Below are positions 20,691-23,839 of a stretch of 64,000 bases of DNA, piece by piece. Numbering within the stretch: position 1 is the first letter of the stretch; each line of letters starts with the position of its first letter. The position numbers and the translations under genes are program-made. This stretch comes from Escherichia coli (GTDB lineage: Bacteria; Pseudomonadota; Gammaproteobacteria; Enterobacterales; Enterobacteriaceae), in NCBI RefSeq assembly GCF_044324785.1, contig NZ_CP172127.1. The stretch is one strand, 5' to 3'. The notes under the pieces were generated by a model. That model worked only from the letters and a program-made list of their open reading frames with translations, was not told the DNA's origin and searched no databases.

Positions 20691-21068
20691 TTAGACGTGC
20701 TTGGAGAACAGGTAGCGTGCCATCACTAAAACAATGCCAAAGACTTCAGCGAGGGTTCCCCCCATAAATAGGTTTATAACGAAATCACTAAAATGGAGCA
20801 GTTTTGCTCCAATAAGGACAAAAATCCCATTCATAACTAATAGCTGGCCTATCAGAATGCCGATAAACCACCGAGCAAACATTTTTTTCAGTTTTGTGTC
20901 TGTTTTTAAATCTTTTGTTTTTGCACGCTGATGGGCTTTGGCTGGATCCTCATCATTTAGATGTGTGAGGGTTTTTGCTGATGGAGATGAGCCAGAGGCT
21001 GGTTCACCTCTGGCTTGTCTTGCCGCTTGCTTTAGTTTTTCAGATATAGCGTAAGATCTAGACGTCAT
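20691..21068 (-). CDS. small membrane protein (basic N-terminal region, two predicted C-terminal TM helices)
   Basis: 125-aa ORF 4 nt downstream of ImmA-like gene; C-terminal hydrophobic stretches FIGILIGQLLVMNGIFVLIGA and GGTLAEVFGIVLVMA. Confidence 0.45.
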   Translation of the reverse strand: MTSRSYAISEKLKQAARQARGEPASGSSPSAKTLTHLNDEDPAKAHQRAKTKDLKTDTKLKKMFARWFIGILIGQLLVMNGIFVLIGAKLLHFSDFVINLFMGGTLAEVFGIVLVMARYLFSKHV

Positions 21069-21071
21069 TAC

Positions 21072-21560
21072 TCATCGAAGCCCTAAATTCTTTAGGCGAT
21101 AACGTATAGCATCATCGGATACACCAAAATAGGAAGCCATCATTACTGGTGCATATCCTGCATTGTTGAGGCGTCGAACCTCTTTTTCTGGCATGAGAAG
21201 ACATGCTGCAAAGTTATTGGCGAATATTTCTTCGCTGTCTACACCTTGGCTTGCCAGTTTTCCGCGGTAATCAACAAACTCATATTCAAGTGGCTGACCG
21301 TTCTCAGTTCGTTTGACGTAATGCCCTAACTCATGCGCACACGTAAATCGTTTGCGCACGTTACTATCATTACGATTGAGTATGATTACTGGATCTTGTT
21401 CTGGCTCTTTCAGCAATGCGCCTGAAACATCATCATCAAGCGTGGTTTCAACAACATCCAACCCTAACTCATTGGCAATCCATACTGGATCAACCGGGAA
21501 TTTCCTATCGCCCCAGATATCTTTCAAGAGGGCATGTGCAGATGTATTCGACATGTTCAC
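21072..21560 (-). CDS. ImmA/IrrE-family zinc metallopeptidase
   Basis: 162-aa ORF with HEXXH motif in context CAHELGHY typical of ImmA-like peptidases; no N-terminal HTH domain. Confidence 0.7.
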   Translation of the reverse strand: MNMSNTSAHALLKDIWGDRKFPVDPVWIANELGLDVVETTLDDDVSGALLKEPEQDPVIILNRNDSNVRKRFTCAHELGHYVKRTENGQPLEYEFVDYRGKLASQGVDSEEIFANNFAACLLMPEKEVRRLNNAGYAPVMMASYFGVSDDAIRYRLKNLGLR

Positions 21561-21641
21561 CTCCTTTGATTATGGTTAAATAGTCGAAATTTTCACCACT
21601 TCCCTTGTGGATATATTTACATATAAAAGGTGGATTTGCCC

Positions 21642-22547
21642 CTATATTTCCAGACACCTGTTATCACTTAACCCATTACTGGCCTGCTGCCGCAGATATT
21701 CCCGTGGCGAGCGATAACCCAGTGCACTATGCGGATGCCATTCGTTATAATGCTCGAACGCCTCTGCAAGGTTCTTTGCTGCCGTTAACCCGTCTGGTTT
21801 AGGCATGATACTGATGTAGTCACGCTTTATCGTTTTCACGAAGCTCTCTGCTATGCCGTTACTCTCCGGACTCCGCACCGCCGTGTTCTTCGGTTCAAGC
21901 CCCAACATCCGGGCAAACTGCCGTGTTTCATTAGCCCGGTAGCATGAACCATTATCCGTCAGCCACTCTACTGGAGACGCCGGAAGCTCGTTGCCGAAGC
22001 GGCGTTCCACCGCTCCCAGCATGACGTCCTGTACTGTTTCACTGTCGAAGCCGCCCGTAGTGACTGCCCAGTGCAGTGCCTCACGGTCACAGCAGTCCAG
22101 CGCGAACGTGACTCGCAGTTTTTCTCCGTTATCACAGCGGAACTCGAACCCGTCAGAGCACCATCGTTGATTGCTTTCTTTCACGGCCACTTTGCCAGTA
22201 TGTGCCCGTTTCGATGGCGGTACAGCGGTTTTTCGCTCAAGCAACAGCGCATTCTGGCGCATGATCCGGTAAACACGTTTGGCATTGATCGCAGGCATAC
22301 CATCAAGTTCGGCCTGTCTGCGAAGCAGCGCCCATACCCGACGATAACCATACGTGGGCAGCTCTCCGATAACATGGTGTATACGGAGAAGCACATCCGT
22401 ATCATCTGAGTGACGGCTGCGGCGACCATCTTTCCAGTCATCGGTTCGTCTGAGAATTACGTGCAACTGCGCACGCGACACCCGGAGACAACGGCTGACT
22501 AAGCTTACTCCCCATCCCCGGGCAATAAGGGCGCGTGCGCTATCCAC
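21642..22547 (-). CDS. insD: IS2 transposase OrfB (InsD)
   Basis: 301-aa translation [34 protein letters not shown]... with DDE integrase fold region. Confidence 0.9.
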
Positions 22548-22870
22548 TTTTTTGCACGCCCGTATTCAACGGCTTCTTTAAGGAGTTCATTTTCCATCGT
22601 TTTTTTGCCGAGCAGGCGCTGGAGTTCTTTAATCTGCTTCATGGCAGCAGCAAGTTCAGAGGCAGGAACGACCTGCTCTCCTGCGGCCACAGCAGTAAGA
22701 CTTCCCTCCTGGTATTGCTTGCGCCAGAGAAATAACTGGCTGGCTGCCACACCGTGTTGCCGGGCAACAAGGGAGACCGTCATTCCCGGTTCAAAACTCT
22801 GCTGAACAATAGCGATCTTTTCCTGTGTAGTACGCCGTCTGCGTTTCTCCGGTCCTAAGACATCAATCAT
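22505..22870 (-). CDS. insC: IS2 transposase OrfA (InsC)
   Basis: 121-aa translation [41 protein letters not shown]; overlaps insD as expected for programmed frameshifting. Confidence 0.9.
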
Positions 22871-23839
22871 CTGCTCTCCAATGACTAGTCTAAAAACTAG
22901 TATTAAGACTATCACTTATTTAAGTGATATTGGTTGTCTGGAGATTCAGGGGGCCAGTCTAAAAGGTAACTAGTCACTAACCAACACAAATCTTTTTGAA
23001 GATAGATGGGGGGTGTTGAACGGTTTTTAAATGATTTCTTTGATTTTTAACAGCAATAAGGAGCATTTTTAATGAAATTAGACGTTGATAATAACTTTTT
23101 GAGCAATCTTTACATATCATGGTAGCCTTCTATGCTGTTTTTCCAACTAAAAGATTGGCACATTTATCCGCTGGTAGTGGCGTTTTTTCGCCGCCAGCGC
23201 CTCTCTGGTTCCATTCCTTACATCTGTTCAAATTCAGCAACCCTTGCCGCGATCTTGCCGTTATCGAGAAGCTCTTTCGCTTTTCGGTTAATACTATCGG
23301 TCTTCATATTGCCAGCAGCATACGCCATCCGATAATTTCGATGCTACGCGCGCGTACTTGTCGCAAAATATCAGGCAAAGGCCAGATTCAGAACGTCGTG
23401 ATAACCACCAGCACAACATGAGAGGTCATGTAACGCGATTTATCACACCAGATACATGTGATTGGTGTACCCGCATAAAACATTGTCATAGCGCGTCCTG
23501 TGCGCATATAGGCCGATAATCAACACATCACCACCACTCTGTCTCATGTAGAGAACAGTTTTATGGTATCCCCCGCCATCGTGTGTGTACTGGTCGGACG
23601 CAGTTGCAAAACTTTTTGCAACTGATGCCCCTCGCGCGCGTACTGGTCACGAAATTGGTGTTTTGCTGTGGCAGTGATATCAGAAAAATCTTCCTGTTTC
23701 ACATAAAGCGGATATGCGCGTACTGTAACGGCCCCATCAACGGGGATCGGATTTGAAATCCCGACCCAAGCTATGTACCAAATGCCATGTCTTGGATATA
23801 TGATGATTGCCATTCTAAACAACGCTAAAGGGGGTTGGT

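Follow-up and report, generated by a model that had tools for sequence, protein, structure and literature searches.

The gene pair and its products

A 64,000-nucleotide stretch of an Escherichia coli chromosome (contig NZ_CP172127.1 of RefSeq assembly GCF_044324785.1), referred to below as the window, contains two adjacent minus-strand genes that encode a small zinc peptidase and a small membrane protein, with a copy of the insertion sequence (IS) IS2 shortly upstream of them (Table 1). A preliminary description made from the sequence alone had recognized here a HEXXH peptidase of the ImmA/IrrE type, directly followed by a 125-aa protein with a basic tail and two transmembrane (TM) helices, and had likened the pair to toxin-antitoxin (TA) and anti-phage modules. 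Both gene descriptions proved accurate, and in this work we examined the relatives, distribution and genomic context of the pair as well as the possible consequences of the IS2 insertion.

The peptidase matches Pfam family Peptidase_M78 (PF06114) with an E-value of 1.4e-19, possesses the motif HELGH at residues 74-78 and has no hydrophobic segment. Its start codon is most likely the ATG at 21554 (160 aa) rather than the GTG at 21560, because an AGGAGG motif (21560-21565) is well spaced from this ATG and because identical copies are annotated with this start in RefSeq (WP_000072645.1) and the alignment of the orthologues begins there; the length of 162 aa given previously is obtained only from the GTG, with an open reading frame (ORF) of 21072..21560 on the minus strand. 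The Shine-Dalgarno sequence is kept in the Pectobacterium and Plesiomonas orthologues and is present as a degenerate AGGAGGA in Serratia. Three untranslated nucleotides separate the peptidase stop codon from the second gene, which is probably translationally coupled to the peptidase gene, the peptidase being encoded first. Both proteins are 100% identical to the copies found in IS2-free strains.

Among 36 peptidase orthologues, residues H74, E75, H78 and E109, an N-terminal FPVDP motif and an LLMP motif are invariant or nearly so, and the HExxH...E zinc site that characterizes the M78 antitoxin domain of RosmerTA systems is intact. The N-terminal Xre-type helix-turn-helix (HTH) domain of canonical RmrA, the RosmerTA antitoxin, is absent. 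In an AlphaFold2 (AF2) model, the peptidase part reaches a predicted local distance difference test (pLDDT) score of >90, and the best PDB fold matches detected by Foldseek are CapP (7t5t), IrrE/PprI and a transcriptional regulator of M. tuberculosis (6cz6/6cyy). The fold alignment to CapP/IrrE covers the protease core only, the GAF domain and the HTH being absent from the 160-aa peptidase. A sequence search of the PDB yielded a single marginal match, again to CapP (E 0.005). Among PADLOC models, capP was the best match (4.9e-25, profile positions 5-150 of 242), accompanied by many RmrA models with E-values down to 9e-14 that were matched only over approximately positions 150-290 of 360-400.

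The membrane protein, which we consider the toxin candidate, has a basic and disordered N-terminal tail (14 K+R versus 7 D+E in residues 1-62), followed by hydrophobic segments at approximately residues 64-87 and 97-117 that are joined by a 9-residue loop and bordered by basic flanks. This arrangement indicates a predicted N-in/C-in hairpin with the tail in the cytoplasm. The protein matches phrog_5346 (6.7e-23), and neither a Pfam family nor a PADLOC model was found for it. The hairpin is highly conserved and includes polar residues within the helices, namely Q75 and N80 in TM1 and T105 and E108 in TM2. Such positions stay polar in distant members of the family (Q/E, N/D and E/Q), which suggests that they may line a pore or form an oligomer interface and that the hairpin is not a simple anchor. 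The cytoplasmic tail ranges from about 50 to 140 residues across the family and is poorly conserved outside three islands: a short N-terminal amphipathic helix, a motif L37-(D/N)38-x-P (with L or I in 146 of 194 members), and a juxtamembrane motif D53..D57-x-x-L60-K-K-x-Y-A.

Distribution and linkage of the two genes

A search with the membrane protein returned 60 clusters, and a profile search of 1.84 billion representatives with the toxin family returned 1493 clusters at E<=1e-3 and 314 at E<=1e-10; among the matches listed, all were small (49-236 aa) and had the conserved domain in their C-terminal part. We examined 39 loci with a membrane-protein homologue, which came from Pectobacterium, Plesiomonas, Methylococcaceae, Pseudoalteromonas, Microbulbifer, Endozoicomonas, metagenome-assembled genomes (MAGs) of Nitrospirae and Desulfobacteraceae, and 14 viral contigs. 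A peptidase homologue was located immediately upstream on the same strand in 39/39 of these loci, the two genes overlapping by at most 4 nt or standing up to 15 nt apart. Full-length copies of the upstream peptidases had phmmer E-values of 1e-93 to 1e-42, and the only weaker values belong to L011 and L049, whose copies are cut off at the end of a contig. The same gene order was observed in three more enterobacterial loci (L055-L057, Serratia among them). In a reciprocal test with four divergent peptidases chosen blind to their neighbours, the next gene encoded a divergent membrane-protein homologue in every case, and one of these homologues is apparently truncated. Overall, the two genes are adjacent in all 46 loci examined, which cover Proteobacteria, high-GC bacteria, other MAGs and prophages, and their pairing is far beyond chance.

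The pair is found in PICI-like satellites (phage-inducible chromosomal islands), at prophage ends by int/xis, between lysis and terminase genes, beside a Panacea-type TA module and, in high-GC bacteria, in ordinary chromosomal contexts near LigD or glycosyltransferases. Such scattered contexts are typical of small selfish or defence modules. Clustering of the flanking ORFs revealed no conserved third gene and no adjacent HTH gene in the 46 loci. We also looked for a standard prophage immunity cassette, the finding that the preliminary description had set against its own proposal, and found it in 0/46 loci. An immunity cassette of the ImmA/ImmR type was ruled out by the lack of an adjacent HTH repressor gene in these 46 loci and by the variable position of the pair within phages, where it lies by int/xis, after lysis genes or after tail genes.

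In methanotrophs (Methylobacter and Methylococcaceae; L008-L010 and L019), the two genes of the pair separate cysD (PAPS_reduct) from cysN (GTP_EFTU), and only ~60-115 bp remain on each side. As cysD and cysN normally form one operon, the pair in these organisms thus lies inside it.

Relationship with the RosmerTA pair of phage Kita

Ernits et al. 2023 (PNAS) reported in their NetFlax study a RosmerTA hub, D25, described as an 'ImmA protease antitoxin', and validated an example from Gordonia phage Kita (PMC10440598). The constructs tested correspond, according to the supplementary tables, to YP_009301393.1 (gene 32, 'Peptidase_M78') and YP_009301394.1 (gene 33, 'Transmembrane') (PMC10440598). 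The product of gene 33, RmrT_D5, is a small toxin whose membrane region is C-terminal and which causes rapid depolarisation of E. coli and pore formation; it is only partly neutralised by RmrA_D25, the product of gene 32, and the two genes together protect E. coli from particular BASEL myophages (PMC10440598). D25 proteins 'often', not always, carry an HTH (PMC10440598). A search of the literature on M78 or COG2856 proteins with a membrane partner returned nothing specific apart from the NetFlax paper.

Both components of the window pair have their counterparts in Kita. When the window peptidase was compared with a phage collection by tblastn, Kita gene 32 and its relatives were retrieved (43% identity over 99% of the query), and a BLASTP alignment with RmrA_D25 shows 43% identity over 160 aligned columns (query residues 2-159, E 3e-44). 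Kita gene 33, which shares 4 nt with gene 32, codes for a protein of 119 aa. When all ORFs from four phage loci were scanned with the toxin hidden Markov model (HMM), this protein was the sole match (E 5.2e-12). With the toxin-family HMM built from 195 members, a score of 38.8 bits is obtained for RmrT_D5 (E 3.5e-14 at Z=1), and hhalign with a 21-sequence toxin alignment gives E 4.9e-5 and a probability of 68%. The alignment spans the whole hairpin with unchanged register, and the equivalents of N80 and E108 are retained. The PADLOC pattern of Kita RmrA is that of the window peptidase (capP ~1e-25, and RmrA models over the peptidase part only), and Kita RmrT, as the window toxin, matches no PADLOC model. 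A tblastn search of the window toxin against 50,697 phage records found no match, which is probably due to low-complexity and TM masking.

The homology of both components places the window pair, as an enterobacterial representative, in the Kita-type class of RosmerTA, which is HTH-less and encodes the antitoxin first. The preliminary description had pointed to a missing HTH partner. The peptidase indeed has no HTH, but this is not an anomaly created by IS2, because the whole subfamily, including the validated Kita antitoxin, is without one.

Related stand-alone M78 peptidases were also observed in mycobacteriophage Che9c (L065, genes 32/33; 48% identity) and in a P2-like phage (L064, 31040-32216; 36% identity). 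The proteins encoded after them are small and fall outside the toxin family described here, that of Che9c having a single C-terminal TM helix, and a HicAB-like pair is located immediately upstream of the Che9c peptidase gene. These neighbours fit a swapping of toxins around one antitoxin and are no counter-example.

The pair as exchangeable cargo of a satellite

The pair is located within an island of ~20 kb between dinD and yicC. Considering that this island has an integrase, a primase, PerC and Ant/Bro-like genes but no capsid, tail or lysis genes, and that it is ~20 kb in size and occupies a fixed site, it is by its predicted gene content an EcCIMP1-like PICI satellite. EcCIMP1 is a PICI with an equivalent layout whose helper is the P22-like phage Kapi1, and it makes an as yet unexplained contribution to superinfection immunity (PMC11773190). 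PICIs integrated at yicC were also noted earlier (bioRxiv 10.1101/2022.07.18.500453).

We found the pair in 68 complete E. coli genomes out of 5426, and ~290 others lack it but contain the island backbone. We aligned an IS2-deleted reconstruction of the window to the islands of other strains. Island homology ends at 20641-20665 and restarts at 23277-23338, which delimits a variable slot. In other strains this slot contains either a gene for a 320-aa Abi protein (PADLOC AbiD, 2.7e-57; L012, L014 and L003) or a 73-aa ORF (L013 and L015). The pair is swappable cargo, and the cargo unit consists of the two genes and ~380 bp of upstream DNA. The homology with the validated Kita RmrA_D25/RmrT_D5 (PMC10440598) and the presence of AbiD in the same slot elsewhere agree with the proposal, already made in the preliminary description, that a peptidase is combined here with a membrane effector of the TA or anti-phage kind.

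A convergent 147-aa ORF on the plus strand (20231-20674) was considered as a missing partner and rejected, since it belongs to the backbone and also occurs in islands whose slot contains AbiD or the 73-aa ORF. Its product has a ribbon-helix-helix-like N-terminus (KSNLVAFRIPSELQDEF...SWLVDAIRMKL) and, apart from a weak phrog_30270 match, belongs to no family.

The IS2 insertion and the upstream region

The element upstream of the pair has the termini of IS2, TAGACTGG... at the left inverted repeat (IRL) and ...CAAATCCA at the right inverted repeat (IRR), together with orfA and orfB with a frameshift and a 5-bp target duplication. The intact AAAGG duplication and the distance of about 70 bp had been described correctly: counted to the GTG of the peptidase gene the distance is 70 nt, and to the ATG 76 nt, the IRR end of IS2 faces the operon, and AAAGG is single at the empty site in IS2-free genomes. 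An IS2-containing query has thousands of matches at >=95% identity in E. coli genomes (1317 records at >=99%). Since this particular insertion is shared by 0/5426 complete genomes, it is recent and strain-specific.

Other IS copies were seen at the same slot. In CE20 (L003 8012-9472), an IS2-like element of the IS3 family interrupts the AbiD gene, and IS1 and IS3-family copies are present in or near the slot in two other islands (L014 7592-8289, and L004). IS elements appear to strike the cargo slot repeatedly.

It had been suggested that IS2 either separated the pair from a regulator or now supplies its promoter, and that IS2-free loci would reveal the original upstream gene. The first part of this alternative did not hold, as no regulator gene was found upstream in the IS2-free loci. 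The 380 bp of cargo-specific DNA contains no regulator or HTH ORF, the only ORF being one of 47 aa (22977-23120) that has no family match and is unannotated in RefSeq. An Rfam scan of 19000-24500 with E-values up to 1 returned nothing, and there is accordingly no known non-coding RNA in the upstream gap of roughly 950 bp. The second part may still apply through a fusion -35 element in the IRR, and silencing of the operon is a further outcome that the preliminary description did not list.

When E. coli is compared with Pectobacterium and Serratia, TAGTGAC-N(16-17)-TG(T/C)AAA(T/G)AT is the sole conserved motif in the upstream region; it is situated ~55-90 nt before the start codon, and its -10-like part stands equally far from that codon in all three. 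From these three sequences we infer a putative native promoter composed of a -35-like GTGACT, a 17-nt spacer and an extended -10. A consensus promoter scan gave counts at or below the shuffled expectation, and its sole minus-strand match, GTGAAA-16-CATAAT (21596-21569), was not relied on because transcription from it would begin inside the Shine-Dalgarno sequence. IS2 is inserted within the 17-nt spacer of the putative promoter, whose -35-like and -10-like elements are now 1336 bp apart, and it may either supply a fusion -35 or silence the operon.

We regard silencing, by which the module would be intact but unexpressed because its -35-like and -10-like elements have been parted, as having slightly less than an even chance. 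It is favoured by the location of IS2 in the spacer of the only upstream motif common to the three genera, by the recent origin of the insertion (0/5426 complete genomes) and by the poor -35 candidates in the IRR, where the choice at 17-18 nt from the -10-like element is limited to GGGCAA and GGGGCA (2-3 of 6 matches); the IS2 hit on the AbiD gene of CE20 in turn suggests that IS insertions into costly cargo are tolerated or selected. However, the IS2 IRR carries an outward -35, and at ampC it created a stronger fusion promoter despite a poor -35 (Jaurin & Normark 1983, cited in PMC9330008). Moreover, the retained extended -10 (TGn) would need little input from a -35, read-through from the co-oriented transposase genes is possible, and both ORFs are still 100% intact. 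Silencing, a fusion promoter and read-through would all be tolerable for the cell because toxin and antitoxin are co-transcribed.

Proposed mechanism and alternative explanations

We consider it likely that the pair is a Kita-type RosmerTA module for TA and abortive infection that is carried as PICI cargo. In such a module, the RmrT-like 125-aa protein would insert into the inner membrane as an N-in/C-in hairpin, and free toxin might oligomerise via Q75, N80, T105 and E108 into pores that collapse the membrane potential. The cytoplasmic RmrA-like peptidase would hold the toxin inactive, most likely by binding its N-tail and possibly by cleaving it. Upon infection by certain phages this control would be lost, and the cell might be depolarised before the phage cycle is completed, the whole module being borne by the EcCIMP1-like PICI beside yicC. 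That the E. coli copy behaves as its Kita homologue, that neutralisation proceeds through the N-tail, and what triggers the toxin are inferred.

We also modelled the two E. coli proteins by AF2 as a fused chain with a 30-residue Gly-Ser linker, based on a 24-row paired alignment. Toxin residues 11-20 have a pLDDT of 85 in the fused model versus 65 for the toxin alone, and residues 21-50 have 61-69 versus 42-48, a gain of ~20 points for the N-tail. A beta-bridge is formed at T35-H36, directly before the conserved L37-N38. These features fit, if weakly, a tail that is docked on the peptidase much as a substrate strand would be. A more specific version of the proposed mechanism, which we put forward tentatively and consider rather doubtful, is that of an enzymatic antitoxin: the peptidase might grip the tail via its amphipathic helix, place L37-(D/N)38-x-P in the active-site cleft and continuously clip or clamp it, thereby blocking pore assembly, and a phage product or host shut-off that blocks the protease-substrate interaction would act as the infection sensor. 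If true, this would provide a neutralisation mechanism for the HTH-less RosmerTA class and would define a large family of protease-gated pores, with 1493 or more sequence clusters, that escapes the present defence-system finders.

Several observations weigh against the assignment to Kita-type RosmerTA or parts of it. The homology between the window toxin and Kita RmrT is remote (hhalign 68%) and involves a hydrophobic hairpin, in which composition can inflate scores. All toxicity and defence experiments concern the Kita homologue. Ernits et al. saw partial neutralisation only and were unable to model the Kita complex (pDockQ 0.05; PMC10440598). The fused model has no predicted aligned error or interface score, the two runs compared were made on different alignments, and an artefact of the linker is possible. 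With regard to genomic context, many loci lie in ordinary chromosomal neighbourhoods (cysD/cysN, LigD and glycosyltransferases), and it is thus the mobile-element contexts that carry the defence-island argument; a PADLOC scan of neighbours in the other loci matched only a phage methyltransferase and AbiD, implying no general defence-island signal outside mobile elements. In this strain, finally, IS2 may have silenced the operon.

Different roles for the protease were also considered. The peptidase might be an activator, in that a full-length membrane protein would be inert until a phage-triggered M78 peptidase clips its N-tail and frees the pore-forming hairpin, in the manner of gasdermins or of signal-activated ImmA/IrrE/CapP. 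All characterised M78 relatives (ImmA, IrrE and CapP) are signal-activated and site-specific and cleave the product of the adjacent gene, the AF2 model places the conserved L-D-P tail island against the peptidase, and a tail length of 50 to 140 aa would suit a dispensable pro-region. However, the Kita membrane protein is toxic alone and its toxicity is lowered by the peptidase (PMC10440598), which is the opposite polarity, and the 160-aa peptidase has no GAF or other sensor domain. The Kita toxicity data thus disfavour an activating protease, which we hold to be improbable.

It is also hard to sustain, and quite improbable in our view, that the pair is an anti-repressor module in which the membrane protein would serve as a tether or sensor and a distant HTH repressor of the satellite or its helper would be cleaved by the peptidase to control induction, as in ImmA/ImmR, CapP/CapH and BlaR1/BlaI. 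The peptidase is nearest to CapP and IrrE in fold and sequence, and the E. coli, Pectobacterium and Plesiomonas copies reside in PICI-like satellites that depend on induction by a helper phage. Nevertheless, an adjacent HTH gene is found in 0/46 loci and there is no conserved third gene, the pair also occurs outside mobile elements, it is in E. coli a swappable cargo replaced by AbiD and no part of the island backbone, and the homologous Kita pair acts as a TA and defence system. Superinfection exclusion, in which the hairpin would recruit the peptidase to the inner membrane, where incoming P22-like ejection proteins would be attacked and the entry of DNA prevented, appears very improbable, because the pair is distributed across phyla and in phages unrelated to P22 and the Kita homologue protects against myophages with a membrane protein that is toxic alone, even though P22-type ejection-protein genes adjoin the slot, the neighbouring 204-aa membrane protein is weakly SieA-like (phrog_7745, 4.4e-4) and EcCIMP1 contributes to superinfection immunity (PMC11773190).

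Other features of the island

The positions of the gene pair, the upstream elements and the main island genes are summarized in Table 1. The ejection-protein homologues comprise gp16-, gp20- and gp7-like proteins and a DUF2824 'head morphogenesis' protein and are present without capsid, tail or lysis genes, as are the ejection-protein genes of EcCIMP1 (PMC11773190). The gene for the 204-aa multi-TM protein (23840-24454, plus strand) adjoins the slot; alleles at this locus in other strains encode 146-218 aa, and it may be a second variable accessory gene. The PerC-family gene product scores 26.1 bits against the ANR (anti-virulence regulator) model, whose cut-off is 32, and the PerC-like protein of EcCIMP1 represses LEE, the enterocyte effacement locus, instead of activating it (PMC11773190). 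Beside the island, dinD (18677-18946) has a 543-bp internal deletion compared with other E. coli (L001 7079-7621 is missing), with the junction at ~18721-18724, and the remaining ORF corresponds to the 89-aa N-terminal part.

Table 1. Positions, in the window, of the gene pair, its upstream elements, IS2 and the main island genes
Feature	Position	Strand	Basis or remark
rmrA-like antitoxin gene, stand-alone M78 (ImmA/IrrE) zinc peptidase, 160 aa	21072..21554	-	PF06114, orthologues
rmrT-like toxin gene, 125-aa predicted inner-membrane protein	20691..21068	-	Hydropathy, alignment
Shine-Dalgarno AAGGAGG of the peptidase gene	21560..21566	-	Read from sequence
Putative retained extended -10-like element, TGTAAATAT	21613..21621	-	Conserved in three sequences
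Putative displaced -35-like element, GTGACT within conserved TAGTGAC	22972..22977	-	
IS2 (IS3 family), 1331 bp	21631..22961	-	IRL at 22961, IRR at 21631
IS2 orfA	22505-22915		Co-oriented with the pair, intact
IS2 orfB	21642-22547		Co-oriented with the pair, intact
Target-site duplication AAAGG, copy 1	21626..21630	.	
Target-site duplication AAAGG, copy 2	22962..22966	.	
Variable cargo slot (pair, ~380 bp cargo-specific upstream DNA, IS2)	20666..23276	.	Homology breakpoints
PerC/ANR-family regulator	19684-19971	-	
P22 ejection/head-completion-related genes (four)	24473-29131	-	
Large primase, 919-aa TOPRIM-DUF927	29894-32653		
Ant-like gene	35849-36682		Island also has Ant/Bro-like genes
Tyrosine integrase	38405-39742		Beside yicC

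Implications

With these results, an unannotated pair of 'ImmA/IrrE peptidase + hypothetical protein' becomes a recognisable defence or TA module with a validated relative. The Kita-type, HTH-less RosmerTA systems form a large and strictly coupled family that is distributed over several phyla, prophages and satellites, with 1493 clusters of the toxin alone, and defence inventories undercount this family because Pfam and PADLOC v2 are without a model of the toxin. The location of the module in a PICI slot shared with AbiD bears on the unexplained superinfection immunity of EcCIMP1-like satellites, and the natural IS2-bearing and IS2-free E. coli alleles offer a convenient system for studying how an M78 protein neutralises a membrane toxin.

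Comparison with known systems

The kind of system described here is already known and recently validated and is not new, and the functional guess of the preliminary description was essentially right. What goes beyond the literature is the size and coupling of the family, its absence from Pfam and PADLOC, the PICI slot shared with AbiD, the hypothesis of neutralisation through tail motifs, and the putative promoter split by IS2.

Canonical RosmerTA (RmrT/RmrA), the system of Millman et al. 2022, is said to combine an M78-domain antitoxin with diverse toxins and to provide TA-like abortive-infection defence against phages. The window pair shares with it the ImmA/IrrE M78 domain in the antitoxin and the adjacent, co-oriented toxin gene; in contrast, canonical RmrA is ~360-400 aa in length with an N-terminal Xre HTH, and the window toxin matches no PADLOC RmrT model. 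CapH/CapP of CBASS, a cyclic-oligonucleotide-based anti-phage signalling system (Lau et al. 2022; bioRxiv 10.1101/2022.04.27.489752), IrrE/DdrO and ImmA/ImmR have the M78 protease-core fold in common with the window peptidase, and in each of them the protease acts on the product of the neighbouring gene. The window pair differs from them in having no GAF domain, HTH partner or regulated downstream operon, its partner being a membrane protein. Membership in CapH/CapP was rejected, as the peptidase has no C-terminal GAF-like domain and no HTH or CBASS gene is present in the window neighbourhood or in related loci.

In PanT/PanA and other type II systems with small membrane-depolarising toxins (Kurata 2022 and Ernits 2023, described in PMC10440598), a small toxin with C-terminal TM helices depolarises the membrane and the antitoxin is an adjacent cytoplasmic protein. 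The likeness to the window pair lies in a small depolarising toxin with C-terminal TM helices that is neutralised by an adjacent cytoplasmic protein; the antitoxin domain is Panacea in one case and an M78 peptidase in the other, and the sequences are unrelated.

The Kita pair differs from that of the window in its actinophage host, as opposed to a PICI of Enterobacterales, and in the tail and TM sequences of the toxin, which are strongly diverged in the window; the E. coli copy furthermore has IS2 upstream. In both cases, however, a stand-alone, HTH-less M78 peptidase of ~160-178 aa is followed within a few nucleotides by a ~120-aa protein with a hydrophilic tail and two TM helices, and both pairs are accessory cargo of a mobile element.

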